Virus record (IMG/VR): IMGVR_UViG_3300017655_000001
Span: 1-64,000 of that record
DNA: 64,000 nucleotides
Source: a virus
Taxonomy: Duplodnaviria > Caudoviricetes
Strand: one strand, 5' to 3'
Program-made: the position numbers and the translations under genes
Shown: one piece after another, positions 10,245-35,517 of the stretch
How the letters are laid out: each line of letters opens with the position of its first letter
Position numbering within the stretch: the stretch's first letter is position 1
The notes under the pieces: generated by a model
Told to the model about the DNA's origin: nothing
What the model saw: the letters and a program-made list of their open reading frames with translations, nothing else
The model's database searches: none

Positions 10245-10488
10245 CTTATCCTCATAGTTGTGTGTGTTGTAATGTTAGTAGATAGAGAGATGTTATAGCT
10301 ATGCTAGTATTGTCAAACGCTGAAGTCTACAACCCGCATGGATAAAGGGCTACAGAGGAGATGTGCTCTCCATAGTTCATTTTTTGATCAATTGTAAACC
10401 TAACAACCTCTCGTTGCATAGGGAAGACATTACCATAGAACGACAGCTTGTCAAGAACATTCCACACAAAAATATTTTCCATTACCCC

Positions 10489-10517
10489 TTGCATCCATCC
10501 CCACACCCTGCTATTCT
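10489..10517 (+). promoter_or_regulatory. Sigma70-like promoter starting the plus-strand block
   Basis: TTGCAT-17-TATTCT. A divergent TTGACA on the minus strand lies near 10449-10454. Confidence 0.65.
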
Positions 10518-10581
10518 ATACCCCACAGAGCACAGAGATGTGCAAACATAAATTAAATGCCTGAAGGGATTAGGAGAGGAA

Positions 10582-11719
10582 ATGAAATTTTACGTTGTAT
10601 TTGAGCACTGGTATAATTATTGTGATCAATGGGATGTTGCAGAGTCTTACTGGTTAAGTGAAGAAAAAGCAATTGAACGTGTTATTGAACTTGAGTCTAA
10701 AACTAAGATTAGTGAAAACTATTGGGTAGATTACGAAAGTATTCAAACTGAGGATTAAAGCATGCAACAGAAAAGTAAAGAATTCTTTGAAAAACTGGCT
10801 TCCCTTCTTGAAGAATATGGTGTAGAAATAGAAATCACAGAATCGTGTTACGGTTATCAAGGATTTCAAGTGGATGGGCTGGAATTCGGTATTCCGTATG
10901 TTGTAGAGGATGGAGAATTCAGTTACAATAGCGTAGATTATGTAGAGCTTGCTGGACGATTCCATAAAACAGAAGATATTCGTGAGGAGATTGGGAAGTG
11001 AAAAGTATTCAAATTTGGGTTGTGCATGAAACGCAAGGCGGTAAGCTGGTTCGTGCTTTCACTACAGAGCAAGATGCTTGGAGTTTCCTGCAGTGGTCGC
11101 ATGCTGAAAAAGAATTAGATGGAAGATATTTTACAGTGAAACCAATTTGGCTAGAAGACTGGAGTAAGAAATGAAGACTATTCCTAACGTTCCATACGGC
11201 TGGATGGATTTTGTCTCTCGTGTAAAAAGCTTGACAACGAGCCCACTCTCAGCAGATAATTATTCAGTGATGATGCGAGAATATTACATTCTTGGTAAAA
11301 CACCACAGGAGTATGTGAATAGCTTGAAATAAATTTTTGAAATAAGGAGAGTATTATGTGCGATTTTTACGAAGAAATTTATGAGATGTGTCAAGAAGCG
11401 ATTGATCCGCATTTAAAACCTAATCAACATGGGATGTACAGCATTACTAAAGAAAGTTTAATCCCTAGTGTTGTAGAAAGTCTTGAATATCTTATTGAAT
11501 TCTGGCAAGCTAACAAGAATAAGGAAGGTATTGACCTATGTGGAGCACGGAATGTCTAAAATCAAAATCATTGAACGTCCATACGGAAAGAAACGTTATT
11601 GTGTGTATTTTGGGAAGCAGCTGATGGACAGGTTTAGTAGTAAAGAAAATGCGAATCATTATGCTAGTATGTATTTGGTTCCTCCGTATAGCCTAGAGAC
11701 GAATAACTGGTATAGTTAA
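10582..11719 (+). other. Run of about six small hypothetical CDS
   Basis: Includes 10762-11001 and 11356-11559 plus several sub-60-aa ORFs read directly (MKFYVVFEHW..., MKSIQIWVVHET..., MKTIPNVPYGW...), each with a GGAG/GAGG RBS. Confidence 0.7.
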
Positions 11720-11730
11720 AGGAGGATAGA

Positions 11731-12312
11731 ATGAAATATGAACTTCAAATGATTCATCCTTTCACACGAGAACCTGTTGTATTCCAGATCAGTGAATTCG
11801 TTCACAAGGCTTATCAGTTTGCAAAGAAAGCCCACCAAGGTCAGAAGAGGAAATATACGGGTGAAGATTATATAAATCACCCTGTAGAAGTTATGAGTAT
11901 TGTTTCAACTGTAACACACACAGAAGAAATGCTTGCTGCTGCTCTACTTCATGATAATTTTGAAGATTGCGGTATCACTCTTTACCAAATAAAGAAAGAA
12001 TTTGGTTGGCAAGTTATGGCTTATGTAAACGACCTGTCAGATGTATCCAAGCCGGAAGACGGGAACCGCGAATTACGCAAGAAGCTAGATCGTGATTGGA
12101 TCGCTGAAGCTTATCCTGCTTCTAAAACAATCAAGCTTGCAGACCTCATCAGCAATAGCCGTTCAATCGTAAAACACGATAAAGATTTTGCTCGTGTGTA
12201 CATCAAAGAGAAAGAATTGCTTCTTGAGGTGTTGACAGAGGGTGATGCTACATTATACGCTAAAGCTAAGCAAATCGTTGAAGAAGCTAAAAAGGAGTTG
12301 GAATTAGAATGA
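11731..12312 (+). CDS. Stand-alone RelA/SpoT-type HD hydrolase (Mesh1/SAH-like)
   Basis: AYQFAKKAH.GQKRK..GE.YI.HP, AALLHDNFED and KTIKLADLISN. Confidence 0.88.
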   Translation: MKYELQMIHPFTREPVVFQISEFVHKAYQFAKKAHQGQKRKYTGEDYINHPVEVMSIVSTVTHTEEMLAAALLHDNFEDCGITLYQIKKEFGWQVMAYVNDLSDVSKPEDGNRELRKKLDRDWIAEAYPASKTIKLADLISNSRSIVKHDKDFARVYIKEKELLLEVLTEGDATLYAKAKQIVEEAKKELELE

Positions 12313-15300
12313 CAAACAAAGAAGCTCATCTGCGGACAATTGCTATATTTGCATTGTCCTTCATAGTCATCGGGATTGTGGCAACACTGTTTTATTTCTT
12401 CCCTCAAGTGATGTCTGGAATCACTGTATTTGGATTCTTTGCAATCTGCTTTGGGATGGCTTATAATTCATTTTACCAAGCGCACAAGAACAGCGGAAAA
12501 GAGCCTAAATAAATCGTGCAAAGCCCTAAGCAGTAGGGTAGGATACTCCCTATCGGGGGAATAAGAGAAGTCGCTTATTTAGGAAGAGAATCGTACAGAA
12601 AAGAGGAGATTTATGCGAAGAATTATGTGTTTCTTCGGTGTGCATAGGTGGCAGTATCTAGGTACGCTTGATTGGAGTGATGGGACAGGTACTAAAACGT
12701 ACTGGTGTTACCATTGCAAGAAATTAAAAATGGAGGGTACAAAACTATGAAACAAGAGGATATTGACTTCTTCCAAAGAATTGATGCCAAGAAAGAGAAT
12801 GGTAGCATCCAATCAATCCTTTCAGAAGGTAATCTACAAGCATTGAGCTTTGAATCTGTAGCTAAACGTATTATTATGAATCTTCTGAATGACAGGCAAG
12901 CTATTTTGACGGAAAATAAGGCTATGTCGAGCTATCTTAAGAAGATTGGTCACTACACTGCTGAAGCTTTGGGGATTAAAGAATGAAATGGTCTGACCTG
13001 CTGACAACAAAAGATATTGAAAATCTTTTGAAATTAGCTTACTATCGTACTTTTAAAGGAGAGAAGAAATGAGCGACGTACAAAAAGTTGTAAATGAGAT
13101 TAACGAGAAACTGTTCAACGACCCTGTATCTGAGACTGACTACTTCCGTTACCTTGAATACACAACTACACCTATTGGTGACTTCGTTAAATATATGGGG
13201 AACTTCATCTGGGACTCTGAGAATGATTACCGTGAATGGATTGATGATGAACAAGAACCACTGGAAGGTTATCTAGTCAAACAGATGATTGAAATCAATA
13301 AAGTAATTGTTAGCAGTCTTCGTGTTCTTGACAAACGATACAAAGCAATTGCCAAAGTAATGGATAACCGCTTGAAAGGTGATGGGTTGCGTGCAAATAT
13401 TCTGGAACGCACACAAGAATTTGTTGACAGTCAAAATAAATAAGTAGGATAATAAACATGAGTGGTAAATTTGTAAGTTTGGTGCTGGTGGATCGTCAGT
13501 CAGATAACCTTGATGAGGAATGGGGTCGCGGGTTTAAAGGAATTACCCACCTAGAGTTTGAAACTGCGCAAGATGCCAGACAGTTTTATGTAGAACAAGA
13601 CTATCTTTATCAGGACGGTATTTGGAAAGATACTCGGTTTGTGATTATCCCATATATGGGCAAGAAGTAATGGACGAAGAAATTGTTTGTTATCAAATCG
13701 AGATTCTTGTGCCGACAGGAACGCACAAGTACATTTACTCAGACAAGATTCCAACAAACGAGGAAGTCCAAACTGAGTATGGGTTGTTCGCAAGAGTTGG
13801 TTCAGTAAATGGTCTGATGCATATTGTTCAACACAGGCAACAATTAGAATCTTATAAAACTCTGTTGAATTTTTATCAAGAGTCCTACAAAGAAGATAGG
13901 GGGATTAAGTGAACGAAGACAAAATTCAGATTTGGGGTAAATGGGTTGGACATGAGACAGACCATCCTGACTGCCTTCTACTAGAAACAGAAATCCATTT
14001 GAACGGTAAGAAAGTAGATTGGAATTTTGTAGATGTCTATTCTTTGGCCTTGTACTACAAAAACTGCAAACCATACAAAGATTATCCCTATTCTTACTTT
14101 GAACCTTTCAGTTGTTCATGCGGTATTGCAGGATGTGCAGGTATTTGGGGCGGAATTGATGTAAAAGAGCGTAAACACTCCATTCAATGGAGTGCCAAGA
14201 AAGAGCACGGATACGGTTTCCTTGAGAAAAGCTTTTATTCGTTTGACAAGAAGCAGTATCTGAAAGCTTTTAATGATTTTCTTTTCTGGCTAAAGATGGA
14301 ATGCGATTATGATTATAAGCTCTGCGTAGATATTGGACATTATGAAGGTGGTGAGACTACAGTAGGCGAATTCTTTGAATGGTTGGAGACAAAACAATGA
14401 TTTACATTCTCGCTTGGCTCATATGTGGTGTTTGCTCTTTTTATCTACTTAGGTCTTTCCTCTATCGCATCACAGAGGATCAAGGAGGATTGTTCCATTG
14501 CATTCAAGAATTGTTTGAGCAAATGGATAAGGAGGATATTGAAAAGGGTGGTTTCGCAGACGAAACCTGGAAATTAGCTGATGAAAATACAATGTTGGCG
14601 GTTGTTCATACACTATTTCTTGTAATGAGCCTAATTATTTGGCCAATTGTACTTGCAGCTTTGCTTTATTGGATGTATACTAGTGCTACTTGGGACGATT
14701 TGATTTATGAGAAGGAGAATGTAAATGAGTGAGGTAAATGAAGTTCCTAGCTTTTGGGCTTTCTTTATACCGTGCTTTTTAGTTCTAATGCTATTCTTGG
14801 TGATGGGAGGAGAGAATTCAAAGAAAGCTAGAGAAGAATGTGAATCTAAAGGTGGTCAGTATTTTGAATCTAGGGGTAAGTCAGCTATTTGCCACAAAGG
14901 ATTAGTGCCATGAATGACACACACGTTTTGAAAAACAGTCTTAAAATCCTGTATGCCGATCATCCTGAAATCTTAATGATGCTTGATCAGATTTCATTTG
15001 ATAAATTGAATGTGCAATGGAAACAAGAATTGTTCTCTCGTATAAATCCAGAAACGTATTATTTGGTTGAAGAATTTCTTGCATCTGAGCTTTACAGTAG
15101 TTACACTCAAGCTGTTCATGCAGCGACTCTAGCGATGACAAGACCACTTAGCGATTTGATGAACTTTGTACTTGAAACTAATAAAGGAGCATTAAGCTAA
15201 ATGTCGACAAAACAACAATACCAATCCGTCCTAGACGACATGAATGTCTTGGAAGACCAATTTGATTTATCTGTTGCGCTTATTTCATCGCTTGATGATG

Positions 15301-15608
15301 GGTCAGAAGTGTATCCTCATACTTCGGATATATACACACAAATTGCTAATATTAAATCATGGAGTAGTGATAAGATAAATGAGATTGAGAAGCAAGAAAT
15401 GCTTGAGGGATTTTTAGCAGGAATGAGGGGTTTGTTTATTGAGTATGGGGCTAAATTGGAGATTGTGAGTACTGCTGAGGGTGTAGGATACGGCCTTCAG
15501 TACGGGGAAGGTGGTAGTGAAGCTGGATTTAAGCTAACAATTGAGAAAGAAGGGTTGACTGCTGAGAAGATTTATGAAACAATGATTCTGCAAGGCAATA
15601 ATATCTAA
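12309..15608 (+). other. Run of small hypothetical CDS, several with TM segments
   Basis: ORFs 12309, 12705, 13069, 13458, 13622 (true start about 13669), 13909, 14379, 14725, 14889 and 15201, with overlapping stop/start codons. Confidence 0.7.
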
Positions 15609-15626
15609 CTGAAGAAGGAATACAAG

Positions 15627-16409
15627 ATGAGTGCTAAAAATCGGGCTGTACTAGTTGTTGTAGACGGGCAAGAAATCGAAGTACCTCGGAAACGTACTCG
15701 AAAAACTCGGAATGGTGGTGTCAGCCAAGAAAACAAAGAAAAGTATGCACATACTAGCAGTCTGCGTAAACCGCTAGTGCCGATGAACGATAAACAAAAA
15801 GACTACATCAAGGCTGTTCAAGAGGATGCTTGTGTAATTTGTGTCGGTGTATGGGGAAGTTCAAAAACCTTTATCCCCTCGGTAATCGCATCTGATTGGT
15901 TGATGGACAAGAAGATTGATAAGGTAATTATTGCACGCCCGGCAGAAGGTAAAGGCAAGTCTGTAGGTTTCCTAAAAGGCAGTAAAGATGAGAAAATGGA
16001 ACCATGGTGCGCTCCAATCACCAACACAATGAAAGAGCGTATGGGTGTTGCACATTTTGAAGCAATGCTTGCAAATGGTAAAATTGAACAACTCAGCTTG
16101 GAGCATGTAAAGGGCCGGTCTTGGGACAACTGTCTAATCCTCGTGGATGAAGCGGAGGATCTGGACCCTGAAGTTGCAAAAAGTCTTGTCGGGCGCCAAG
16201 GATACAACAGCACCACGGTTATTACGGGCGATCTACGACAACAAGACCTTAAGAAAAACTCCGGTTTGCAATACTTACTTGACGTTGCAAAATATGCAGA
16301 CATTCCCGTAACATTGATTGACTTTGATTCTTGGGATTATTGCGTTCGTTCAGAAGAAGCTAAGATGTGGGGTCAAGCGTTTGAGAAGTATGAAAATCGA
16401 GGGAAGTGA
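15627..16409 (+). CDS. phoH: PhoH-like ATPase
   Basis: KQKDYI, G.WGSSKT, IIARP, GFLKG...EKMEPW, KGRSW, LVDEAE and ITGDLRQQDL. Confidence 0.93.
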   Translation: MSAKNRAVLVVVDGQEIEVPRKRTRKTRNGGVSQENKEKYAHTSSLRKPLVPMNDKQKDYIKAVQEDACVICVGVWGSSKTFIPSVIASDWLMDKKIDKVIIARPAEGKGKSVGFLKGSKDEKMEPWCAPITNTMKERMGVAHFEAMLANGKIEQLSLEHVKGRSWDNCLILVDEAEDLDPEVAKSLVGRQGYNSTTVITGDLRQQDLKKNSGLQYLLDVAKYADIPVTLIDFDSWDYCVRSEEAKMWGQAFEKYENRGK

Positions 16410-17356
16410 TGACTCATAGTATCGATATTACTGGAATTAAGTCCGGTAGACTTACCGCAGTAAGGGAACTACACAAAGAGGGTAGGCACTGGTTATGGGA
16501 ATGCAGTTGCGAATGTGGGGAGAAAGCCGCGTTCCCTAATAGGTACATACGGCTTGAGTTGGTAAGTAATTGCGGGAAATGTGGAAGTAGCACTCGTAAA
16601 AATGCAACATATATTGGAACTAAGGTTTTTAATAACGAAGGTTATGAAGCTGAGGTTATCGGATTTGTTTCTTCCAGCCCCTCAATTTTCAAAGTTAGGT
16701 TTAATGATGAATACCATGCTGAAGTTGAAGTAGCCTGTGGTAATTTCACAAGGGGTAGCTTTTCAAATCCGTATCACAGAAGTGTTGCTGGAGTAGGTTA
16801 TTTTGGAATTGGTAAGTTTATTGCTAAGAAAAATGGAAAGCATACACTAGAATACGAAGACTGGAATAGTATGCTAAAAAGGTGTTATAATTCAGAGGAA
16901 GCAAAGAAATCTTACAAAGATAAGTATGTAGTGGATATGTGGCACAACTTCCAAAATTTCGCAGAATGGGCAACATCGCAAAGGAATTTTGGAAGGAAGG
17001 GTTGGGATCTTGAAAAAGATTTGCTTATTAAAAATAATAAGGTTTACAGCCCAGAAACCTGCGTCTATCTACCACGTGAAATTAATTCCTTTATTAAAAG
17101 GAAGAGCTTCAATGCGTTACCCCTAGGTGTGGACGTTGCGTATAATTATGATGGCACAGCTTACTATCGGGCACAGTCTACGGAGGATGGTAAAAACATC
17201 TGTCTTGGAGGATTTGAAAGAGTTGAAGAGGCATTTCTTGCCTACAAAGTACACAAAGAGATGCTGGCTAAAAAGTTGGCTAATAAGTGGAAAGACGAAA
17301 TTCCAGAAGTTGCGTATAAAGCGCTTTACAACTATACCGTTGAAATTACTGATTGA
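16406..17356 (+). CDS. Homing endonuclease (HNH-type)
   Basis: WECSCECG, WNSMLKRCY, WHNFQNFAEW, WDLEKDLL...KVYSPETCVYLP and an AP2-like tail. Confidence 0.85.
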   Translation: MMTHSIDITGIKSGRLTAVRELHKEGRHWLWECSCECGEKAAFPNRYIRLELVSNCGKCGSSTRKNATYIGTKVFNNEGYEAEVIGFVSSSPSIFKVRFNDEYHAEVEVACGNFTRGSFSNPYHRSVAGVGYFGIGKFIAKKNGKHTLEYEDWNSMLKRCYNSEEAKKSYKDKYVVDMWHNFQNFAEWATSQRNFGRKGWDLEKDLLIKNNKVYSPETCVYLPREINSFIKRKSFNALPLGVDVAYNYDGTAYYRAQSTEDGKNICLGGFERVEEAFLAYKVHKEMLAKKLANKWKDEIPEVAYKALYNYTVEITD

Positions 17357-17366
17357 GGGAATAAAA

Positions 17367-18167
17367 ATGCAAGATGAATTTATGATGCCAATGCTACAAC
17401 CACTAGGTTCAAAAACCTTTACTACCGAAGTTCGTGGTCAACAACACACTTACTATCTCACTGGTGATGTGACAGAGCCAGATAACTACGTGGATCTTTG
17501 CAACCTGCTTCGTTCCTGTTCGCCGCAAGACGAGGTGCTGATCCGAATCAACAGCCGAGGTGGATCTGTAGCAAGTGAACGAATGATTGTCAACGCGATT
17601 CAAGAATGTCAAGGTACCGTGGTTGCTTATATTGAGTATTTCTGTATGAGCGCTGCAACAGGGATCTTCTTGGCGGCGCACCATCATGCATGGGCTGAAC
17701 ATATTCAATTCATGGTGCATTGCGCATTCTGGGGATCAATCGGTAAAAATCCTGACGTTAAGAGTCAGACAGAGTTCGGTGTAAAACAACTTGAAGAAGA
17801 AATTAACTCGACGTACAAGGGGCTACTCAGCGATGAAGAGCTAATTCAGTGCAACGAGGGGAAAGAATTCTGGTTTGGTGCAAAAGAACTAGAAGAACGT
17901 ATGAAAAGTTTCCTTGAATATCGTAATTCTCTTCCTTGTGATTGCGGGTCGCCTGAATGTCCCCGTAGTCCTGAGAATATGGCTCTACTTGAAGAGGAAG
18001 AAGACTTCGAGATGCCAACCCTAGACACCATGATTGCTGACGCAGTTGCACAAGGGATTGAGCAATACGAAAAGAAAAAGGCTGATGCTGAGAAGAAAGC
18101 TGCTCGTAAAGCTAAGCCAAAAGTCAAACCTATTGTTGAAGAAGCTCCACCTGCACCAATTCAATAA
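17367..18167 (+). CDS. clpP: ClpP-like serine protease
   Basis: INSRGGSV, CMSAAT (catalytic Ser) and FMVH (His). True start is MQDEF at 17367 (GAGG RBS); the track start at 17127 overlaps the endonuclease. Confidence 0.88.
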   Translation: MQDEFMMPMLQPLGSKTFTTEVRGQQHTYYLTGDVTEPDNYVDLCNLLRSCSPQDEVLIRINSRGGSVASERMIVNAIQECQGTVVAYIEYFCMSAATGIFLAAHHHAWAEHIQFMVHCAFWGSIGKNPDVKSQTEFGVKQLEEEINSTYKGLLSDEELIQCNEGKEFWFGAKELEERMKSFLEYRNSLPCDCGSPECPRSPENMALLEEEEDFEMPTLDTMIADAVAQGIEQYEKKKADAEKKAARKAKPKVKPIVEEAPPAPIQ

Positions 18168-18173
18168 AATCAG

Positions 18174-18202
18174 TTGACAGAAGATAGTGTGCAGCTTACA
18201 AT
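18174..18202 (+). promoter_or_regulatory. Sigma70-like promoter
   Basis: TTGACA-17-TACAAT. Confidence 0.8.
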
Positions 18203-18393
18203 TAGGGCACACTTGATTCAAAGGAGAGGGAAATGAGTATTTACGAAGAAATGGGTTATGTCAACAGGAAAGAGTACCTGTATTCATTAGCAGAGGAGTA
18301 CGATGTTGGAGTTTCTGAAGTTTTCGCGCTAGCAGAAATTCTTGGTGAAGCAGAAGATTTTGATGGCTTAGTTTCAGCATTGGAGGATATGTA

Positions 18394-18915
18394 ATGAAGA
18401 TGGATAAAGTAGCAGGTAGTGGTAATGATGAGTTTTACACCCCAGAGTACGCAATTGTTCCAATTCTGAAGTATGTAAAACCTGGGAGTGTCGTTTGGTG
18501 CCCATTCGATACAGTGAAGTCCAATTTTTATAAGATGTTGATCAATCACGGATGTAAAGTACTTTTGTCTCACATTGAAGATGGGAGAGACTTCTTCAAC
18601 TATGAGCCTGAAGAGCATTACGACTACATTATTTCTAACCCACCTTACTCTGTTAAGGGGGAAGTTTTCGAAAGATTGTTTAAACTAGAAAAACCTTTTG
18701 CAATGCTAGTTGGAGTAGTCGGACTTTTTGTATCACAAAAACGGTTTGATTTATTTAAAAATAATTGGTTTGAAATTATGTATCTAAATCGTCGTGTTTC
18801 TTACTTCAAAAACTACGAAGATCAAAAACCATCACTAAATCCCCCTTTCAGTAGTGTATACGTTTGTTTTGATATGCTGCCTGAGACGATTGTCTTTGAA
18901 GAAATTAAAAAGTAA
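18394..18915 (+). CDS. DNA N6-adenine methyltransferase-like protein (orphan)
   Basis: DEFYTP, VWCPFD, DFF and IISNPPYS (motif IV). Confidence 0.82.
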   Translation: MKMDKVAGSGNDEFYTPEYAIVPILKYVKPGSVVWCPFDTVKSNFYKMLINHGCKVLLSHIEDGRDFFNYEPEEHYDYIISNPPYSVKGEVFERLFKLEKPFAMLVGVVGLFVSQKRFDLFKNNWFEIMYLNRRVSYFKNYEDQKPSLNPPFSSVYVCFDMLPETIVFEEIKK

Positions 18916-18924
18916 GGAGACGTC

Positions 18925-19476
18925 ATGTCTAAAGAAATCAAAACAACAATCGTAGATGCTGCTGAGATTGACAGCTACAACGACGAAGAAGGGTTCACTT
19001 TCAAACACCCTTCAAAATTTTATGTATTGACAAGCCTTAATCAACTAGTTTATATTCACGTTCGTAGTCGAGCAGAAGCGCAAGCGTGGGCTGATGAAAA
19101 TTGGGGAAAGAATTTCTATATTGTTCGACAAGCTAAAATGTCTACAGGTTCGGGTGAGTATACGTGCAGTGGCTCGAACTCGCGTAAAGGTTTTGCTAGC
19201 CATCTGCGACCAACTGTTTAATTAAGGAGAAATTTAATGCGAAATATTGATCTAATCAAAAAGCTAAGCATGTTTGATCCAGAAGGAATTGTAGTGTTGC
19301 GGAACACAGAAGGAAATTCACCAACACTTCATAACGTAGAACAAGAAGAAGGTGTTCACGATTTAGATGGCTGGGATTTGCTTGGTGATTGGAAAGATGT
19401 AAAAGAGATGGAAGATTTTTATGGGTCTTCTGATAGTGATCCTCTAGCTTTTGTTTCGTTGATCGTATTGAGTTAA
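18925..19476 (+). other. Two hypothetical CDS (18925-19221, 19237-19476)
   Basis: ORFs with AGGAG RBS. Confidence 0.7.
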
Positions 19477-19478
19477 TT

Positions 19479-19883
19479 ATGAAATACGACCAGATGTACA
19501 TGGACTTTGCCGTCCGTGCAGCACAAGAGAGTAAATGTCCACGTAAACAGGTTGGGTGTATTATTCTTGCTGATTCAGGAATGGTAAGTCCGGGGCTAAA
19601 TGGTCATGCTTCGGGTGGACCTAACGAATGGGAATTCAAGGAAGAAGGGGATCCTGAAGTTGTCCATGCAGAAATGCAAGCTCTTGGAAAAATGTTAGAA
19701 CAAGGTGTGTCAGCTAAAGGTGCAACTGTCTACGTAACGTTGAGTCCGTGTATTGAATGCTCGAAGCTGCTTGTTCGTGCCAAAGTTAAGCGAGTGGTTT
19801 ATCTTGAGGATTACCGTAAGAGAGACGGATTAGATTACTTAATCAAGTACAATATCCTAGTAGAAAAATACAATCAAACATAA
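19479..19883 (+). CDS. dCMP deaminase
   Basis: SKCPRKQVGC, HAEMQAL, VYVTLSPCIECSKLL and VVYLEDYR. Confidence 0.9.
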   Translation: MKYDQMYMDFAVRAAQESKCPRKQVGCIILADSGMVSPGLNGHASGGPNEWEFKEEGDPEVVHAEMQALGKMLEQGVSAKGATVYVTLSPCIECSKLLVRAKVKRVVYLEDYRKRDGLDYLIKYNILVEKYNQT

Positions 19884-19884
19884 T

Positions 19885-19913
19885 TTGCATAGCCTTTATT
19901 CTTGGTGTACTAT
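19885..19913 (+). promoter_or_regulatory. Sigma70-like promoter
   Basis: TTGCAT-17-TACTAT. Confidence 0.7.
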
Positions 19914-19946
19914 TAACACTGTGAGTAAGGGCTATTTTTATTGGAG

Positions 19947-22900
19947 AAAAGAAATTGGCTACCAAAAACATGATTTATCGAGAATTGCTTTCACTACAAA
20001 AGAACTTGGAGAAGGCTTGTAATCGAGCAGAGAGGATTAGTAAGAAAATAGACATTCCAAGCTTTGCTGAACTGTTCTTCTTGAAGACTCAACTAGATGA
20101 AATAATCGAAATGGTGAAGGAGAAATAAAATGAACACACAACAACATTATGACGCTCTTATTCGTATTCAAAAACAAATGATTGAATGGGCAAGTTATCA
20201 ACCAGAGCATCACCACAAACTTTATGGTGGGAAAGAGATTAATGAATGTGTCCAACTTTGTAAGAAGCTTGTTTCTGACTTACAATATAAATTAGAGCTT
20301 GAAGAATCAGCCAAGCTTGAGCTATACTTTGCTAGTGATTCGCTAGCACTTCATAATATGAATTAAGGGGGTTTTATGAAACATGTAATTTCATTTAACG
20401 ACGATACTGATAGGTTCGTAATGGAAGGAGTAGAAGAGACTTTTATCAGCAGTCATTTGTGGACTATTGCAATTAAAGAAAATTTAGAACACGAGTTTAT
20501 AAAAACCATTAGTGAGTCACATGCACTGTCAATGCTTCTTGAGAGTGGCGTTGAAATTGAACTTGTAGACATTGATTGGTAAGGAGAGAAAGATGAAAGT
20601 AGAAATCAAGAACACCCAAGACATTCAGCAATTCTCAGTAGATGCCTATATGATTGAACTGGGATACAAACGGACGGTTGATGGGAAACGCTATGAATTC
20701 ATGTATCCTGTAAAGACAGGTGAACGATTTATCAGTATGCGCACAGCAGTAGAATTGCATAATATTGAATGGGTTTATGATGAAGCAAGTAAGCTATATT
20801 ACCCCGGACCTCGTGATTCAGTGTTTAAGCTTTCTCCTTACGAATATGAGAAGAGTCAGTCACGTAAAATTGTTTCTCGTGTATCTTTGCAGCAAACAAA
20901 GAATGGTATTTTGAAGTGCCAAAAGAATCTTGTTGAATTTATGGCGCCGTTCTACTACGAGCAATTTATTGGAGAATAATCATGCTACCATCTACTGAAC
21001 GTGAGTACAGAGAGAAGATTAAACAAGCAGAACAGAAAGCTACAGAGAATTACTTCCTCGGCCTTCGTAAGGCATTAGGTGTTGTTAATCGTGCTGATTA
21101 TCTTACAGAAGAACAGAAACAGAAGCTTGCAGAGGACTTCTTGAAATGATCCGTCGAATTGCAGCCCTTCGTTACGTGTGCAAGAAGTACAATCTAGGTT
21201 ACAATTGGAAGATTAATCACTTCAAAGATGTAGGCGCTATTTGCTGGCTTGTAAACGAGGAAACTGCTCGATACGAATGGCTTGAAGTGAGTTTGTTTAG
21301 TAAGAATTTTTGGGATATTCTGTGGCATGAAGTTGGACACCTGTGCTTGAAACGCTCGATGGATTACCAAAGCAAGCACTGCAAATCTTTAGGTATTTCC
21401 TGGAGGTGGGGAGCAATGGCTTCTGATGTTTTGATGGCTGAGGAAGCTTTAGCGTCTAAATTCTCAATCCGTATGCAGAAAGGCAAAGCCAATAAGAAAT
21501 GGCTTGAGAAGTGTTGGCATAGCTACACAAGTTGGATTCTTAAAGATTACACAGAATCAGAGAATTTGGATTTACATGTAACAACAATTGCTAAATATTC
21601 AAAGGTGTTCAGATGACCGAAGAAGTAAGACTCTACTCTACAGTGGCAGGTGAGCTAGTAAAGCTTGTGCAAACAGAAACACCAAAATGCTTTGTAGAAT
21701 ATGAGCAGTATTTAGCTTTGGAGAAAGCTTACAAAGAACTTATGGAGAAAGAATATGACTGAAGAAATTAAACAAAATATTTTACAATTAGAGGGGGTGG
21801 ACTTCGTTCACATAACAGAAAACAGGAGTTGTGTTTACGATAAAAAGAAAGGACTACCACCTCTAAGCTTTAAGCTGTATGTTAGGGGCGGTAAGAAGAA
21901 AGAAATTGCCGAAATCCTGTGGTTATATAAACCACTTGGTATCTTGTCTATAGGGAATACATCTGTTAAGGTAAAAGACCGATACGGTTACAAATGGGAA
22001 GTGAACTTCGAGAGGCTTTTGTAATGATTGAGTTAAAACTTGTACCAGAATATGACAACCCTACAGACGAAGAGCGTAAGGAGATTTTTGAATACTACCG
22101 TAGAATCATTGTCAATGCGCAAGAGAATGCGCGGGGTGCTATCCTAGATATGTGCGGGAATAAGGTTTGGGTAGAGACTATTGAAGAGTATGAAGCACGA
22201 ATGGAGAAAATGAAGAGTGACAACTGAGAATTTAAAGCAAATCCACATCACAAACATATCGGGAAAGCCTGAGCTATACATTGACGGTCTAATTATCCTT
22301 GACAAGATAAATTCAGTATATTTTGAAGATGCTATTTATCGAGCACGTAATAATGAAATCGTGACAAGTAGTGGGAAACAATCGATTTTGAGTTTGGTGC
22401 AACGTGGGTATCAAGTGTTTTACCTTTCGTAAGGAGATGTTATGGAGAATAAATGTTCTGAGTGTGGTATGACAGGATTTCACAAAATGTCGTGCAGTCA
22501 GCAATATAAAAGTCGTGATGCTTTAAAGGAGAATTGGGAGAAGTTGAAGGAGATGCAGTATTATAAATTTAAAGGAAATCTTCGATGAGCTATTCAGCGT
22601 ACTACACACCAGACGGGTGGACCTTCTTAAAGATACAAGTAGAAGGATGTGATCCACGAATCAAGGTGTTTGGTTCTTGGTCTGGTGGTTACTTGAGTGG
22701 AGACTCATGGCGTGTGAATTCTGGCTGTACAAAGATTGAAGAGAATGAGAATGAATACATTGTTTCTGGATATTCAGGAAGTCAATATATCCTAATTAAA
22801 CAAAACAATCACATTACAAGCTATAACAAAGGAGTATTAGAGGATATGATTCAAGAACTACTGTCTTATGGCCATAAAGCAGAAATCATCTCTGTACAAG

Positions 22901-25024
22901 AAGCGATAACGTTTATAGAGGATTAGATATAATGAAAACCTTCATAGCTTTCTCTTTCATTATAGCTTTAACAGCATGTGCCCATACACAACCTAGACTC
23001 AGCGGCACAGGGACACAATACCAAGCTTGGCAAACACAAGTATTAGAAGAATGTGCTAGGAAAGCAGCTACAATTACTGTAGAATTAATGGGAGAGAAGG
23101 CTAAGGAGGGGATACTCCTTTCAGTCGTACAGGGACATGCTATAAACAGGTATGTATTAGAACTTTGTTATAAGAGGAATGGGATTGTAATATGAGTAAG
23201 GATGTGGATAAAGCTCAGCTTAAGTACATTCAAGATGGTCAGATAGCTTTTGTCGGTTTCCATCTCCCGAGAAAGACTTATGTTGAGAAAGTTAACAATG
23301 TTTTCTTGCTGTACGAGTGGAAAGATTCTAGTAAAGTGTTTTATCATTGGACTACAGATGTGCAAGACGTATTAGACAGGGCTTACAATTTGGAGGGGAA
23401 TTGATGACTGAACTTCACACAACAATGACAGTAGGACAGCTTAGGAAAATGAAGCCTAGGCGTTTTGTACTGCTAGGAATAACACATCAAAACTCAACAG
23501 AATATTTTACAGATTATGATGTTGTGTTTGCAGATAACTATTGCTATAAGATCCATAGGCTTTCTGGAGAAACAACTATACTTGATACACAGCTTTTTGG
23601 TAAAGATTGGAGTAAAGAAGTAGAAGGGCTTCCAGAAGATAAAGAAATCCAAGTACCTCTGCATGTGTATAAGAATTATTTAGAACAGGAGAAATTGATA
23701 TGAAAATTAAGGGTAGTATTTCAGTAGATTGTGAAGTATCAGAAATTGATGTGGTAAATGCTGCTTACAGTGTTTGGAAAGAGTCAGTCAACCGAAAAGG
23801 ATGGGCAGTCATTGGTGGATATTGGAAAACAGATACTGAGTTTGGGATTAAGACTGAACAAATGAGCGCATCGGAAATTCTTATAGATGCGGAGTTTGAT
23901 AAAATTATCGCCTTCATTCGGTGGATTAAATGAAAGAAAATCTTAAATTTGTTGCCGGACTGATTATCCTAATCCTTCTAGGATTCTTAGCCTATTGTGC
24001 TGTAACAGGCTTTGGTGTTATGATTGGCTTCATCTTTGTAATCTTCCCTGTGTGGCAGATTGTAGTGGGAACTGTTCTTGGTAGTGTTGGTGTATTGTTG
24101 TATTTAATGGAGAAGAAATAATGAAGTTTAAATACAAACAACGAGATTGCGATTGGTGCACAAAAGAATGGGAAGGCTATGAAACAAAACCCGGACATGT
24201 GCAACACGTAGAAGATGGTCCTTGGGAAGTTTGTGGTGTATGTGAAGGAACAGCATCAATTGACGATACTTGTTACTGTCATGCCCATTATAACGGAGAA
24301 TGTTGCTGTGATTATCAAGGGTGGACAGAATGATTCTTATTACAGAAGAAATGAAACAAGCTGCACAGCAAGCTAAGAAAGACAAGATTGCTTATGCTAA
24401 AGAACATCTTGATTTAGATTGGGGTGATGATGAGAAGCATTGGAAGGCTACAGCAAAGCTTTACGGTGTACGTCTGCCCGCTTATTACCATAGCAGTGAG
24501 GAAACTAAATATGCTCGTAGGTTTATTAATAAGCTAGGTGGAGATATGAATGAATATCTTGAATACTGTGGTTGCCGTACACTGAAAGAACTGGTAAACT
24601 TGAACCCAACACATAACGCTGTTGCTTTCTGCGGATTTATTCTTGAATGGTGGCACGAGAAGCAAACAGAGACTATTGAATTTGAGGAAGACGAATAATG
24701 ACAACAGTTCAAGTAGATCCTAAGAAGCTTTATGAGTTATGTAAAGAATTCTTTGAAAGGGAAGATCAAAAACGTAAACAAGAAGTGGTGGAATGGCGTA
24801 AACAGTTATACTCTAAGCGCAGGATGTTTGGACTACTCCCACCAAAGTACACTAAAGAGGAGGTGGAGTCTTGGGAGGTTCCAGGTATTTATCAATCAAT
24901 GGAATTTCAAACTATGTGGCCCCATCACCAACTGTACTCAGCCATGTTAGCTGCAAATGTGGCAATGAAATGCGATGTTCGGATTATTGATGTAGATGCA
25001 AGACTTTTTGCTGCTCTTAAATAA
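19947..25024 (+). other. Run of about 20 small hypothetical CDS
   Basis: ORFs 20130, 20376, 20572, 21146, 21755, 21994, 22217, 22585, 22932, 23192, 23347 (true start about 23404), 23700, 23930, 24121, 24321 and 24698 plus shorter ones, contiguous with RBSs. Confidence 0.7.
22932..23195 (+). CDS. Predicted lipoprotein
   Basis: MKT + hydrophobic stretch + LTAC lipobox. Confidence 0.65.
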   Translation: MKTFIAFSFIIALTACAHTQPRLSGTGTQYQAWQTQVLEECARKAATITVELMGEKAKEGILLSVVQGHAINRYVLELCYKRNGIVI

Positions 25025-25065
25025 CACATTACCACGGGAAATTCTGAATAAATAGACGTTTTCTC

Positions 25066-25094
25066 TTGTAAGACGGGAATATGTGTGCTATTAT
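25066..25094 (+). promoter_or_regulatory. Sigma70-like promoter
   Basis: TTGTAA-17-TATTAT. Confidence 0.55.
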
Positions 25095-25137
25095 GTGTTT
25101 CGTTTAAATTAATGCTATAAAATACGGGGTAATTGAT

Positions 25138-27021
25138 ATGGAAAAGTTAAAACCAACCATCAAAAGAGTTGAGTGTAGTCCTGAGCAATACGTATGTAAG
25201 TATTCAGAAGACCTTTATGTAGAAGTTCTTAATGCTTCTGAACAAGAGTTTTGGAATTATCTTTGTGTAGGCGTGGGTAAAACTCCAACAGAGGCTTACC
25301 AAGACTGGTTAAAGGATTGCGATACTTGGCACGAACATAAAGGTCCTATCTTAGATGGTGAATAATGGAAAACTACGTAAAACCAAACGGCTGTTATGCC
25401 GAATCTGGCTATGACTTCTTTGAGCAACAAGTAAAGGAAGAGTTTGAAGAGTATTCTCTAAGAAAAGGCTATGATATTACACGAGACAAGGAATATAGTT
25501 TCTTCTATACTGATGGTAGAACAGAAGATGCTTGGAGAATGTACCGTGTTGCTCATGTGAAGAGTATTGACATTGATTGGGATAAGGTAGAATATGTCTT
25601 GTATGACGATGTTCCTATGACACAAGAAATTGTTTTTGAATGGAAGGAGATTTAAATGGAAAACGAAGAAGATTTTGTAAAACTCAGTGAGCTTAAGTCT
25701 GATTACTCTGGGCATGATACAAGAGAAGTTAGGGAATGGGAGTACATTCAAATTTCAGGGGACGAAGACTTTGGTACTCGCCTATATTGGTCAGCATTTA
25801 AAGACTCGTCTGGTTTTGAAGCCTTTATGTTGGAAGATGTAGCAGATTTAGGAGATTATCAGCTAGTTACAGTGGTTATTCAGGTGAGCGCCATGTTTGA
25901 CGGAGCTAGGCATATGTATTTTAACAGCGGTGTTGAGGATATGGGATATCTATTTTATCCAAGCACAAAAGATTTGATTAAAGGTCTTGAGTTTATCCGG
26001 GAGCTAGAGTTAAAGTATTGCTGGGATTGTGACAAATGAATATAGAAACTCTTAAAGCTTTGTACAGTCAGATGAAGAGCTATGAAGATAGGATGTGGAT
26101 GCGTTTTGCTTCACAAAACATTCTTATTGCTAGAGAGGAGAGGAAATGAGCAGGAAAGAAGATTTTGAAAAGGCCATGTCAGAGTATTTTCCAAGTCTAA
26201 GTCTTAAACCGGGTAGGCTTAATGATTACAAAGATAGCCATGTTCAGATAGCCTGGTTCTTTTATGAAGAGGCGTTAGATCACGCAGAGAGGAAGAGGAA
26301 GCAAAAGTGATTGGATTTATAATGCTAGTTTTGATGATGTTATTTATATACTTTGCATTTTACAAATAAGCCCTTTCGAGGGCCTTTTATCGTTTAGGAG
26401 AAAATATGGCTAAGAAGCTAGACTTTAACAAGGTTCCAGAGTACACAGAAAAGGATGGACTGCTTATGCAAGCAAACACAGACAACCTGATCAGTATGGG
26501 TGTAAAAGAATGGAAGAAACGAAAGAAGAATGGAGTAGCTGTTATGACGGAGGTTGAGCAGAATGAGATGTTGCGTAAGATTGAGGAAGAGATGCTAGAT
26601 GGCTAGAGGAAGGAAACCAATCATCTTGGTGAACGATATTAAGGAACGCTTTACAGAAGAGTGGTGGGGAAGAGAAGACCTGGATATGTGGCCTTTATGG
26701 ATTGATGATATTGTGTCTGGCGTAGCTAGACTTGATTGGTACGGAGACAGACCAAACCAAATTCCCCTTGCCACCACAAACATAATCAAATGCTTTGTTT
26801 TCTTAGATGAAATATCAACCGAAAATATCATGAAGCTTTTGGAATACAAGAAGAGTCAAGCAAAGCTATATTTGAAAGCTTGCCAACTGTGCTACCCTTT
26901 CTTCAAGCGTTCACTGGAAAACAAAGAAACCCTAAACACAAGATACAGAAGAGAAAGTATTGTGAGCTATGAACAAGGACTGAAATATCACTATGATGTG
27001 CAGCACAGAAGTCATATTTAA
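25138..27021 (+). other. Hypothetical CDS 25138, 25365, 25656, several <60-aa ORFs, 26406 and 26599
   Basis: Contiguous ORFs with RBSs. Confidence 0.7.
26370..26390 (+). terminator. Intrinsic terminator
   Basis: GCCCT-TTCG-AGGGC then CTTTTAT. Confidence 0.8.
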
Positions 27022-27083
27022 TTAAGGTAATTAGATTTTAATTAAGCCGGTATAATAATATACAGTTAGGAGAAAAGTAGTAA

Positions 27084-28238
27084 ATGGAAGAGTGGAAAGT
27101 AGTACCAGAGTATTCTAAATACGAGGCATCAACAACAGGTGTTATTAGAGACTCACAAACAAAAGAGTTGCGTCCATTAACTTGGAATAATAATTTCCTG
27201 TGTACGAATATGCGTAGAGATGATGGTGTCAAGGTTTTGTGTAAAGTTCACAGGATTGTAGCTCTGACTTTCTTAGATAATCCTGAGCAGGCTCATAACG
27301 TAGTGCACATCAATGAGGATAGGTCTGACAACTCAGTAGGTAATCTGAAATGGAAACCAAAACTTGTTAAAGAGGTTGTTTCTAAAGAGATGCCAACACT
27401 AACCTTCCTAGGTAAGACATACACTTATGTGGAGTTTTGTGAACAGGCTAAGTGTGAAATATCTATGCTCAAACACAGGCTCAACAAGGCTGGTTGGAGT
27501 GTAAGAGAGTGTTTTACAGGTATTAAAGAGTTCACTGGAGATGGTTATTCCGGTGAGGGTATGTGGTTTACAAACAAGAAAGAGTATCAAGCTTGGATGT
27601 GGTTAAAAGAGCTTGAGAAAAGAGAACTAAAACGTAAGCAAAAGGAAGACGACAAACAACAACGAATTAAAGAACGTGCTGAGTATAAGAAGTATGGAGT
27701 AGGGGTATTTGAGAACTTTCCTGTGAAGGGGATCGTTGATCGTATTACTACGAAAGCTTATAGAGCCTGGGATGCAATGTTAGGAAGATGCTATGCACCT
27801 AATAAGAAAAGCTACCAATCTTATGGTGCAAAAGGTGTTTACGTTTGCGACTCTTGGTTATATTTTCAGGAATATGTTAAATGGTATGACTCACAGTACA
27901 AAGAAGATGATTGGCATGTAGACAAGGACATCTTGGTAAAGGGTAATAAAATCTATTCTCCAGAGACTTGTGTAATGGTGCCTCCCGAAGTGAATACATT
28001 CTTTGCAAGTTTAACTAGAGATGGCGAGACAGTTAAGGGTTTTATTCAGAATGGTCCGGGATTCACATCAGGGGTGTACATTGAAGGAGAGAAGATTCAG
28101 AAGTATTTTAGAAGTGAGCAAGAAGCCTCTGAATACTATTGGACTAATAAACGTCAAGCAGCTTACAATCTAACCCTTAAATACCCTAATATTGACCAAA
28201 GGGTTAAAGACAAACTGCTTAGACTGGAAATATCCTAA
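27084..28238 (+). CDS. Homing endonuclease (NUMOD4/HNH plus a second nuclease-like module)
   Basis: EEWKVVPEYSKYEAS.TG, VHRIVA.TF, VVHINEDRSDNSV.NLKW; then WDAMLGRCY, VCDSWLYFQ and WHVDKDILV...YSPETCVMVP. Confidence 0.88.
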   Translation: MEEWKVVPEYSKYEASTTGVIRDSQTKELRPLTWNNNFLCTNMRRDDGVKVLCKVHRIVALTFLDNPEQAHNVVHINEDRSDNSVGNLKWKPKLVKEVVSKEMPTLTFLGKTYTYVEFCEQAKCEISMLKHRLNKAGWSVRECFTGIKEFTGDGYSGEGMWFTNKKEYQAWMWLKELEKRELKRKQKEDDKQQRIKERAEYKKYGVGVFENFPVKGIVDRITTKAYRAWDAMLGRCYAPNKKSYQSYGAKGVYVCDSWLYFQEYVKWYDSQYKEDDWHVDKDILVKGNKIYSPETCVMVPPEVNTFFASLTRDGETVKGFIQNGPGFTSGVYIEGEKIQKYFRSEQEASEYYWTNKRQAAYNLTLKYPNIDQRVKDKLLRLEIS

Positions 28239-28250
28239 CCCCCTATTTTT

Positions 28251-28285
28251 AACCCTCTTAGGCTTTTCCTTTGAGGGTCTTTTTA
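28251..28285 (+). terminator. Intrinsic terminator ending the plus-strand block
   Basis: ACCCTC...GAGGGT stem followed by CTTTTTATT. Confidence 0.65.
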
Positions 28286-28326
28286 TTGGCTGAAAATATG
28301 CCTCTCGGGCTATGACCTTTTTAACA

Positions 28327-28355
28327 ACTCTACCACCCCACTACTATCCTGTCAA
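28327..28355 (-). promoter_or_regulatory. Sigma70-like promoter with no downstream ORF
   Basis: TTGACA-17-TAGAGT, pointing at the 28251 hairpin and antisense to the endonuclease gene. Confidence 0.6.
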
Positions 28356-28495
28356 TTAGATTTCAAAATATCCTAATAATATATTTCTATCAAAGAAGGG
28401 TAATCGATAGAGAAAGTCTTAAACATAGTAGTTAAGAGAGAATGTATTAGAAGAGAAGAATTGATAGATGGAATCTATAGTTATGGGTATAAGAA

Positions 28496-28514
28496 AGCCC
28501 TCTTAGTGAGGGCT
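28496..28514 (-). terminator. Intrinsic terminator ending the minus-strand block
   Basis: AGCCCTC-5-GAGGGCT then TTCTT on the minus strand. Confidence 0.7.
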
Positions 28515-28530
28515 GTTTGAGTAGGGATTG

Positions 28531-29092
28531 TTAAAACGGTTCACCCCACTTTTCTTGTACGTCCTGTTCTGCATTAATAAATACTTGATCTGTATATCTA
28601 CCTTCCCCAATTTGCTTAGCCCAATAGTCTAAACGTTGGTTACGGTAAACTGCTACTTTCATGCCTGTCTCAATGCTGCCGTAACCTTTAGGTGGATTCT
28701 TCATGCTAGCGCAGTTAGTCATCAGTTTGTTTACGTTTGCTTTGGAAGCTTTCATGGTAATTTCCTCTGAGGGTTTTCTGTTTCAGTACGCACAGTTTAG
28801 CCATGTTTAGAGTGGTGCGCAAGAGGTATTTTCAAATTTTCCAATCTTTTACATACTCGGCATTGATATAGAATTCCTCTAAGTAGTCTTTTAGATTCTC
28901 GAAATCTACCATAGTATTGATTTTCTGATTAACAGATTTCTCCCCATCGAGTTTGACTGTTATGTGTGCTGTATCTGTCCTTGCTTGGGAGGGTTTCTGT
29001 GAAAGTGTCAATACCCCCTTATGGCCATTAACAGACAATTCCGCTAAAACAATTTTATAGTTTTCTGAAATCAGTTTAGTTTGAATATTCAT
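28531..29092 (-). other. Two hypothetical CDS (28531-28755, 28832-29092), each with its own promoter
   Basis: Promoters TTGCGC-17-TAAACT (28794-28822) and TTGACA-17-TATAGT (29130-29158). Confidence 0.75.
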
Positions 29093-29558
29093 TTGGTTCT
29101 CCTTCAGGATTTGTGCCTTTCATGTATTCACTATAGACCGCTATAGAATCTCTGTCAACGATATTTTCAAAGAAATTTAATTAAGCCTGCATAATAATAA
29201 GAATGTAATTTGAAAGAATGTAGAAAAGAGAAGTAATCTTTGTTTAATTGATTGTTTTCAGACGAATGGTAGAGGGAAATAGTAGAAAGTTGTTGACTTT
29301 TAAGGAGATATTGGCTATCCGGCTTAACATTCACTGACGTTCTGTAAGCCTCCTTCAGCCAAGAATACTCTTAGTCAGGCACCAATAAAGAAGGATGTAG
29401 CAAGCATCCTGTAAGGGATAGGGTCTTTTAGGGATGTTCTTAATAAGGTCTTTATACTGGCTTGTAGGGAGTAACAAGAAAGGAGCCATTAATGGCTCCT
29501 ATTGTATACTAATAGTATATTATTCTTGTTGGTTATGTATTATTCAGTGCACATGTGT

Positions 29559-29744
29559 TCACTCAGCAATGTAGCAGTCGCTCTCTTTGTAACCTTTCAC
29601 TTTCATCCACTTCTCTTCTTGTTTAGCACATATGTCAAAAGCTACTTGAGCCTCTTTTGGTGTTGTAACAGACCAGCTAGCAGGTTCGTAATCATTGCAA
29701 TTCCCGTTGATGCAAAGCTGTACATAGAGAATGATAGTGAACAT
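29559..29744 (-). CDS. Small exported Cys-containing protein
   Basis: Hydrophobic N-terminus and four Cys; loosely related to the 30356 and 30844 ORFs. Confidence 0.6.
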   Translation of the reverse strand: MFTIILYVQLCINGNCNDYEPASWSVTTPKEAQVAFDICAKQEEKWMKVKGYKESDCYIAE

Positions 29745-29916
29745 GATAAGATTCCTTTGGTATCTGTGTAAAATTACTCAGAATTGTATTTGAGCAACAA
29801 GCCCAACAACACACATCACAACAACGGCTACACAAACGTATGTAAAAGCTTTAGATTTCATGTTTATTGCTCCTAGAGGCTGTTCTGAGACAGAATTTCT
29901 CTTCTGTATATCTAGA

Positions 29917-29945
29917 ATTGTAGGGGCTTTGCAGCCCCTTGTCAA
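29917..29945 (-). promoter_or_regulatory. Sigma70-like promoter whose spacer is a terminator-like hairpin
   Basis: TTGACA-AGGGGCTGCAAAGCCCC-TACAAT. Confidence 0.7.
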
Positions 29946-29948
29946 TGG

Positions 29949-35499: not shown

Positions 35500-35517
35500 T
35501 TGGTTTCCTTTTAAAAT

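Follow-up and report, generated by a model that had tools for sequence, protein, structure and literature searches.

A conserved site upstream of divPolA2 polymerase genes in tailed phages, a candidate DNA recognition and start site

The two divPolA2 genes of the phage described here are each preceded by an element that is conserved in the family, has a modular layout and is linked almost exclusively to genes of this kind. The encoded proteins have a family-A polymerase fold, as modelled, and the element shows no RNA structure. We tentatively favor the reading that it is a double-stranded DNA site which the adjacent divPolA2 would recognize and at which it would start synthesis, downstream of a host sigma70 promoter; this is possible rather than probable. 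From these features we infer both the protein that binds the site and the product made there.

The window, that is, the whole stretch of 64,000 nucleotides under analysis, forms the opening 64 kb of a phage record that measures 87,438 bp and carries terminal repeats. The best cultured relative, judged by the divPolA2 gene, is Pseudomonas phage vB_PsaM_M1 (Ounavirinae). The genes are arranged in strand blocks. A leftward block of ~36 kb, with tRNAs, terminase and structural genes, starts at 10244 and wraps to ~61.5 kb; a rightward block spans 10582-28238; a 12-kb early block runs leftward from 40538 to 28531; and another rightward block, from 40841 to ~61.4 kb, encodes a T7-type primase-helicase, PolA, an exonuclease subunit, a gp2.5-like protein and ribonucleotide reductase. 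Each of the two leftward blocks is headed by one divPolA2 paralogue: P0001 (8892-10244, minus strand, 450 aa; PHROG 4756, E 8e-85) opens the ~36-kb block and P0002 (39213-40538, minus strand, 441 aa, TTG start; PHROG 4756, E 6e-82) the 12-kb block. The neighbor genes at the two window loci include no paralogous pair, hence no co-duplicated flanking genes.

As originally proposed, the two genes are polymerase-like paralogues, the proteins being 29% identical (E 4e-65). P0001 combines a winged-helix-like N-terminal domain with a family-A palm and fingers. Neither P0001 nor P0002 has a match in Pfam. In an AlphaFold model of divPolA2 (pLDDT 87.7), fold comparison retrieves DNA polymerases (apicoplast Pol, Z 13.6; Aquifex Pol I, Z 13.1) together with RNA polymerases (yeast mitochondrial RNAP, Z 12.0; T7 RNAP, Z 10.8; N4 RNAPII, Z 7.1). 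As modelled, the palm is thus of family A and lies about equally near the single-subunit RNA polymerases and the DNA polymerases. In the same comparison, residues ~35-147 match winged-helix domains, and this N-terminal domain holds the most conserved peptide of both divPolA2 lineages. Residues D253, R313, K317, H414 and D415 are invariant. The family was described, together with its paralogues, in PMC11348598 (Virol J 2024), and the proteins studied here have the features of its members: a family-A palm with motifs A, B and C, no exonuclease domain, a novel N-terminal domain, and a regular DNA polymerase encoded beside them (PolA, 45779-47887). As to function, that paper names a repair DNA polymerase or an RNA polymerase, making no choice, and the words "upstream" and "promoter" are absent from it; no later paper using the name divPolA2 was found. 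By tblastn, divPolA2 occurs in 243 records, including ICP1 of Vibrio cholerae, barbaviruses and Felix-O1-like phages. Scanning the viral collection with one protein at a time gave no matches, nor did a megablast search of phages. The phage genome has no T7-type RNA polymerase gene, although its replisome is of the T7 type. Separately, the second paralogue of the relative G006 (L043:988-2307, minus; 439 aa) represents a third, very divergent divPolA2 lineage whose motif C reads IHDSF, the form found in T7 RNA polymerase.

Upstream of paralogue 1, the parts follow one another on the minus strand. Going away from the start codon, a Shine-Dalgarno sequence, GAGGA, can be read at 10249-10253, followed by a leader of 45 nt (10254-10298) which contains CTATCTACTAAC at 10274-10285. 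The box, GTTTGACAATAC (10307-10318), has the family pattern wTGk-N5-AATAC and lies 8 nt downstream of the dyad core, which occupies 10327-10355, reads CTGTAGCCC-N11-GGGTTGTAG on the minus strand and matches the family profile on both strands. Further upstream, a sigma70-type promoter (TTGACA-16-(TGg)TAATGT, 10427-10454, minus) is directed through the element to paralogue 1. Back to back with it, a divergent one (TTGCAT-17-TATTCT, 10489-10517, plus) serves the rightward block.

The second site is a weak and degenerate copy. Its leader of 42 nt (40554-40595, minus) contains CTATCACTAAC at 40575-40585, and its box, TTTTACGGGATTATATCTTATAT (40599-40621, minus), is a lineage-2 form common to the orthologues L044, L067 and L068. 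The degenerate core (40625-40652) matches better on the plus strand, as TTAAACCC-N13-GGCTGTAG, and is thus inverted with respect to its own gene, an orientation call made on scores of just 7-10 bits. The only sigma70-like site upstream of this element is weak (TAGACT-16-TAGAAT, 40703-40730, minus). A TACTACAATAC box and a G-free stretch (40727-40765), together at 40707-40765 on the plus strand, are directed rightwards to the replication-gene block. This is the sole other intergenic, gene-directed ACAATAC box in the genome. Since it lies 54 nt from core 2, in the forward direction of that core, the second intergenic region may act bidirectionally. Over 11 nt, TACTACAATAC is identical to the box of the lineage-1 loci L008 and L010. 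On re-reading, the letters and coordinates first given for the two upstream regions proved correct. So did the description of the leaders as almost free of G on the coding strand, both being wholly so, and that of a C-poor half mirrored by a G-poor one at 40.55-40.77 kb, the two being in fact C-free and G-free.

A homologous element of ~110 bp upstream of both genes had been proposed. Compared with each other, however, the two regions are no more alike than shuffled sequence: of 500 dinucleotide shuffles, 13-39% equalled or exceeded the real score, depending on which of four Smith-Waterman scoring schemes was used, so that the claim would fail on the window alone. The 16-17-mers singled out at that stage do not recur elsewhere in the window above expectation. 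That the likeness is a compositional chance between A/T/C-rich leaders, with no element shared by the two window loci, is nevertheless very improbable and largely refuted. A nhmmer profile built without the rows of the window and run over the whole genome, both strands, has its best match at 10307-10354(-) with E 9e-4, followed by 10326-10371(+) with E 0.025 and 40625-40656(+) with E 0.099. All three top matches fall within the two upstream regions of ~300 bp, and nothing else reaches E 0.5 (a match at 72255-72295 with E 0.9, a short hairpin between genes, was left out of account). The second copy attains only E 0.099, which speaks for chance as the pairwise scores do; orthologue chains nonetheless connect it to the family consensus.

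Homologous loci of both lineages were fetched by profile-guided scans (31 + 11 viral, 18 metagenome). About 40 homologous loci entered the comparison, and the core alignment comprises 26 upstream regions whose genes encode homologues with 30-83% protein identity. Nearly all loci fetched have a core and a box in common. The dyad core, ~29 bp long, has the form CTnnAG-CCC-N9-11-GGG-CTnnAG and the consensus CTnnAG-CCC-TTATAnnACG-TGG-GCTGTAG, with A..CC on the left and GG..T..AG on the right (near-)invariant. It is followed after 7-9 bp, a spacing that is fixed, by the box, wTGk and then AATAC and/or CTATCT(A/T). After the box comes either the ribosome site directly, as in the short-leader forms L017, L018, L026, L048, L049, L051 and M1, or a G-free stretch of 40-70 nt rich in CTATCT/ACTAAC. 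Among 33 leaders, CTATCT is present in 21 and TACTAA in 15, and the maximum for any 6-mer in shuffles is 9. The distance from the core to CTATCT varies (12-13, 14-15, 19 or 22-24 bp), and where the motif is repeated its spacing is broad, with no helical periodicity. Since core, box and motif-bearing leaders are conserved where the pairwise alignment is not, what is shared is modular. Accordingly, the ~110-bp element stands as a set of parts common to the family and falls as one continuous alignment. Its second block (AACCC...GGCTRYAG) is a true conserved element that aligns across the 26 upstream regions. The first block, CTATCTACTAAC / CTATCACTAAC when reverse-complemented, is built from CTATCT and ACTAAC, motifs recurrent in family leaders.

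The family model was trained on the upstream regions of these genes, so matches there arise partly by construction; independent support comes from the leave-out scan, from loci outside the training set and from cultured phages. Non-training loci with a site are L062, L075, L077, L079, L030 and the cultured phages vB_PsaM_M1 and KLEP7. To examine the linkage of gene and site, ten complete relatives were scanned with R1, a covariance model using sequence only, and five of these also with a protein profile. Over the 11 complete genomes scanned, 14 of the 16 sites lie directly upstream of a divPolA2 gene, which agrees with the proposal of a gene-plus-site module. One gene with one site is found in G001, G004, G005, G007, G012 and G014, and two genes with two sites in the genome of the window and in G010. 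In G006 there is one site at the main gene, and the weak third-lineage paralogue keeps the left half of the core only, CAAACCCCTATAAAC. In G011 both divPolA2 genes have a site and a further site is an orphan; the second gene of this genome, L062, is divergent and outside the training set (PHROG 4756, E 1.5e-51), and has its own site. G013 has one gene with a site plus one orphan site. In the closest relative, G001 (83% identity to P0001), the second divergent region has neither a second paralogue nor a second site. That gene and site were duplicated together, as had been suggested, is plausible; since the copies are 29% identical, separate acquisition of each is equally possible.

The orphan site of G011 (L064:1900-2100; 88.4-88.6 kb) lies inside a non-coding stretch of ~900 nt. 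It is surrounded by at least seven GCACTT words and followed by TATTATAAT, an arrangement suggestive of an origin or a control region. The orphan site of G013 (L063:2619-2669; 23618-23668) is well conserved (31 bits) and has no adjacent divPolA2 gene; it lies between a 35-codon ORF and a divergent gene for a P-loop protein of 424 aa (PHROG 2467). An extra match, L051:1226-1282, is inside an ORF and looks like chance. Most homologous genes compared keep the element, but the core is absent upstream of distant members (ICP1 ORF100, L005/6, L024/25 and L032), and an Aeromonas-phage lineage (L028, which is phage 2L372X, and L080) keeps only TTATCCACA-GGCTAAG and a CCCTATCTAGAG box. In these two loci TTATCCACA lies ~95 nt upstream of the divPolA2 start, with GGCTAAG after it and CCCTATCTAGAG just before the ribosome site. 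The ICP1 homologue ORF100 (L055; NC_015157, 53113-54780; 555 aa; annotated as hypothetical) sits inside an operon, with no upstream non-coding site.

Several properties of the core bear on whether the element acts as DNA or as RNA. Two-fold symmetry holds over the five inner positions of the core. When G-T/T-G wobble is counted, the inner pairs A..T, C..G and C..G are kept in 26/26, 26/26 and 23/26 sequences, respectively. In phage M1 the core is a near-perfect palindrome of 31 bp centered on GTGGCAC, with 12/15 positions symmetric. The interior of the dyad differs among lineages while the frame is kept, as expected if a binding protein co-evolves with its site. Moreover, with a core-only model of lineage 1, the P0002 clade (window copy 2, L044, L068, L069, L070 and L074) matches in inverted orientation only, and every other lineage in the forward orientation. 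A dimer-binding DNA site can flip in this way, and an RNA signal could not.

An element acting at the RNA level, namely a hairpin or protein-binding RNA in the 5'-UTR such as a translational operator or a processing or antitermination site, has a rather low probability. It would indeed lie inside the transcript predicted from the upstream sigma70 promoter, window copy 1 folds as a 10-bp hairpin, and CTATCT/ACTAAC recur in a leader that looks single-stranded. Against this, besides the inversion of the core in one clade, Rfam gives chance-level matches only, far under the gathering scores (best 21.6 bits vs. 58), and RNAalifold finds 0 pairs on the 26 sequences. A proposed 9-bp stem pairs in 64.9% of cells vs. 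65.9% in shuffles, no G-U excess is seen (28 G-U vs. 23 A-C), folding energies are close to those of shuffles (z -0.92 and -0.78), and the arms are unable to pair in the largest subgroup. Hence nothing in these sequences supports a structured RNA, and the idea that the site might be a "template" RNA is disfavored because no conserved fold was found. Among origin, binding site and template, which had been offered as alternatives, a DNA binding or start site would fit best.

How the element relates to promoters was considered class by class. Sigma70 scans give nothing at the core or the box: GGSCTG stands at the -35 position, and several lineages are without the -11 A or the -7 T. A sigma70-type promoter (TTGAC[AG]-16-18-TAnnnT, gene strand) is nonetheless present upstream of the element in 24 of 39 distinct loci, 50-90 nt before the core and 119-307 nt (mostly 119-205) before the start codon; this implies that the element is transcribed. 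The other 15 loci have no sigma70-like promoter upstream. A T7-type or other genome-wide promoter class can be set aside, as no 11-12-nt k-mer occurs more than four times and the profile matches two sites only; likewise, an ACAATAC box class is not enriched in the genome. Promoters of the N4 virion RNA polymerase are DNA hairpins with a 5-7-bp stem and a 3-nt loop; here, the interior measures 9-13 nt and the arms are not kept complementary. Four further candidates were rejected by eye: sigma54 (wrong GG/GC spacing), an extended -10 (TG misplaced by one to three bases), a LexA box (one subgroup fits only) and a coding leader peptide (stops, and indels not in threes).

A special promoter for the host RNA polymerase is an improbable reading too. 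It would have a phage activator bound to the GGGCTGTAG half-core at about -30 and a weak -10-like hexamer (GACAAT, GATTAT, TACAAT or CACTAT) 12 +/- 1 bp downstream. Such an arrangement, an activator site at about -30 with a -10 hexamer, resembles that of the MotA-dependent middle promoters of T4. In keeping with this reading, TGTAG and the hexamer are mostly 12-14 bp apart and, in the short-leader forms, the element stands just before the ribosome site. However, several lineages have a hexamer (CCCAAT, TGGAAT) that lacks the conserved -7 T or -11 A. A genome has only 1-3 copies, almost all of them beside members of a single gene family, the P0002 clade carries the core in inverted orientation, and no activator gene is known.

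The main rival of the start-site reading is an autoregulatory operator. In that case a dimer of divPolA2, or of another phage DNA-binding protein, would block or throttle the gene by binding the core, and the leader would serve as a translation-friendly 5'-UTR. We hold this to be unlikely but well worth weighing. The site is two-fold symmetric, is flanked in 24/39 loci by a sigma70-like promoter on one side and the start codon on the other, and is nearly confined to the polymerase's own gene, as a dyad operator at the gene of its regulator should be (14/16 sites at divPolA2 genes). Winged-helix Rep proteins of plasmids repress their own genes at inverted repeats, which also counts in its favor. 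Usual operators, however, overlap the promoter, and the site here is 50-90 nt beyond it; an operator also leaves unexplained the box at fixed spacing, the family-wide CTATCT, the 15 promoterless loci and the orphan sites.

A replication origin or origin-linked site is likewise given little credence. According to this explanation the dyad, the A+T-rich asymmetric stretch and transcription would together mark a start, primed by divPolA2 or by a read-through transcript, as in T7 and T4. Both window sites lie at divergent strand-switch regions. Cumulative GC skew over the whole genome has minima at ~10 kb and ~40 kb, which are these two regions, and maxima at ~29 kb and ~61.6 kb, which are exactly the two convergent ones. 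The minima are confounded by gene strand, though, and equally explained by gene orientation. A T7-type replisome in the absence of a T7-type RNA polymerase would suit an origin, as would the G011 orphan site in its non-coding stretch with GCACTT repeats. The A+T-rich, G-free stretch of an iteron-type origin is present at the window sites, but no direct-repeat family is found at either of them beyond single 9-nt pairs. A DnaA box (TTATNCACA) occurs in perfect form (TTATCCACA), at the position of the core interior, in the Aeromonas-phage lineage alone (L028/L080), and window copy 1 has TTATCCATG, a 7/9 match. In general, the columns of the core interior have a make-up that does not fit such a box. 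Two further points weigh against an origin, namely the second divergent region of G001, which is without a site, and ICP1, where the homologue ORF100 is ~5 kb away from the early replication peak (theta origin) at ~60 kb (PMC7145576).

Returning to the start-site reading, the following course of events can be envisaged. Host RNA polymerase would start at the sigma70 promoter 50-90 nt upstream and read through the element, giving the first divPolA2 molecules. The winged-helix-like N-terminal domain would then dock, probably as a dimer, on CTnnAGCCC-N9-11-GGGCTnnAG, and the palm would start synthesis at the box, 7-9 bp downstream, or at the CTATCT motif, 13-24 bp downstream. The product would most likely be RNA for the polymerase's own operon, possibly a primer, and the G-free leader would form its unstructured 5' end. 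Because a conserved dyad with a box at a fixed distance is nearly exclusive to the gene of a winged-helix polymerase, the enzyme's own DNA target is the most economical identity for it. In favor of this reading, core and box persist even before homologues with as little as ~30% protein identity. In the short forms the box directly adjoins the ribosome site, leader length is variable elsewhere, 15/39 loci are without an upstream promoter, and by fold the protein stands as near to RNA polymerases as to DNA polymerases. Taken further, divPolA2 might be a minimal site-specific family-A polymerase of the kind "one enzyme, one site", with its winged helix on a private dyad and an RNA or primer start at CTATCT, each paralogue driving or priming its own block after a spark from the host promoter; this extension we regard as doubtful, if arguable.

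Other observations weigh against a start site. With only 1-3 sites per genome, the element is unlike the promoters that known single-subunit RNA polymerases of phages use. In the early block that follows paralogue 2 there are ~13 strong sigma70-type promoters (28355-37209, minus), so it needs no phage polymerase; because of these many promoters a late-gene RNA polymerase with a single promoter is also unsupported. As a side observation, the structural-gene block (61.5-87.4 kb, 26 kb) has only three weak sigma70-type promoters, and late genes must therefore use another promoter type. A repressor operator would just as typically show a dyad and follow a promoter, and the two orphan sites of G011 and G013 are away from any divPolA2 gene. 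An orientation-dependent promoter would not tolerate a flip of the core, unless the box alone gives the direction. Finally, the core-to-CTATCT distance is variable, CTATCT shows no periodicity, and distant members are without the site.

Known systems offer partial parallels. As with the promoters of T7, T3, SP6 and Syn5, a polymerase of the family-A/T7 fold is encoded beside a conserved site of ~50 bp, and an A+T-rich ...ACTATCTA box, which we take to resemble the CACTATAG end of T7-group promoters, stands just before the transcribed leader. Unlike those promoters, the present sites number 1-3 per genome and are nearly all at the polymerase's own gene; they are bipartite, with a dyad core 13-24 bp upstream of CTATCT, and the orientation of the core flips. 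In contrast to T7-group polymerases, the protein has 450 aa and an unrelated winged-helix-like N-terminus, and its RNA synthesis is putative. Initiators of iteron plasmids (RepA of pSC101/P1, pi of R6K) are also winged-helix proteins with a dyad before their own gene, and are autorepressed at inverted repeats at the rep promoter. Here, however, the window sites have no iterons beside them, the dyad follows the promoter instead of overlapping it and the protein has a polymerase domain. ColE2-type Rep, an origin-binding primase whose origin is downstream of rep, combines site-specific DNA binding with nucleotide polymerization at a single site beside its gene, as proposed for divPolA2; its catalytic fold is unrelated, and primer synthesis by divPolA2 is putative. 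T4 oriF/oriG and the T7 primary origin consist of a promoter with an unwinding element downstream of it. Similarly, an A+T-rich, strand-asymmetric stretch comes after the putative start signal here, at the head of a transcription unit and in a phage whose replisome is of the T7 type; those origins use a general promoter class repeated genome-wide, whereas replication from the present sites is putative. The gp43 mRNA operator of T4 and RB69 is likewise a conserved element in the 5' leader of a polymerase gene. It is a hairpin overlapping the ribosome site, whereas the present element shows no conserved pairing, stands 0-70 nt from the ribosome site and has its core inverted in one clade.

The site was not found described in Rfam or in the literature that could be searched. 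As a cis element it appears to be new, its general type, that of recognition sites linked to a gene, being familiar; the proteins are already known as a family. As a conserved site linked to the gene, it is a first concrete handle on the role of divPolA2 and provides a defined substrate, and its presence in the cultured phages M1, whose divPolA2 is UZS00904.1, and KLEP7 makes it testable. Were the enzyme to prove a mini RNA polymerase specific for a promoter, or a primase specific for an origin, no other of its kind would be as small as its 450 aa, and it might serve as an orthogonal expression tool. If the site were an operator only, it would be an ordinary regulatory feature of an unusual gene.

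Some minor observations concern the surroundings of the sites. An exact 9-nt direct repeat, GAGATGTGC, is found at 10358-10366 and 10535-10543, 177 nt apart, the first copy abutting core 1 and the second lying within the leader of the rightward gene. Three copies of AAATA(T/C)CCTAA, two terminator-like hairpins and an inverted repeat of 9 bp (AGGGTTAAA/TTTAACCCT) mark the 292-nt convergent gap (28239-28530; features at 28179-28389), at which a rightward and a leftward block converge. The orphan dyad site of G011 lies at the junction equivalent to this gap.
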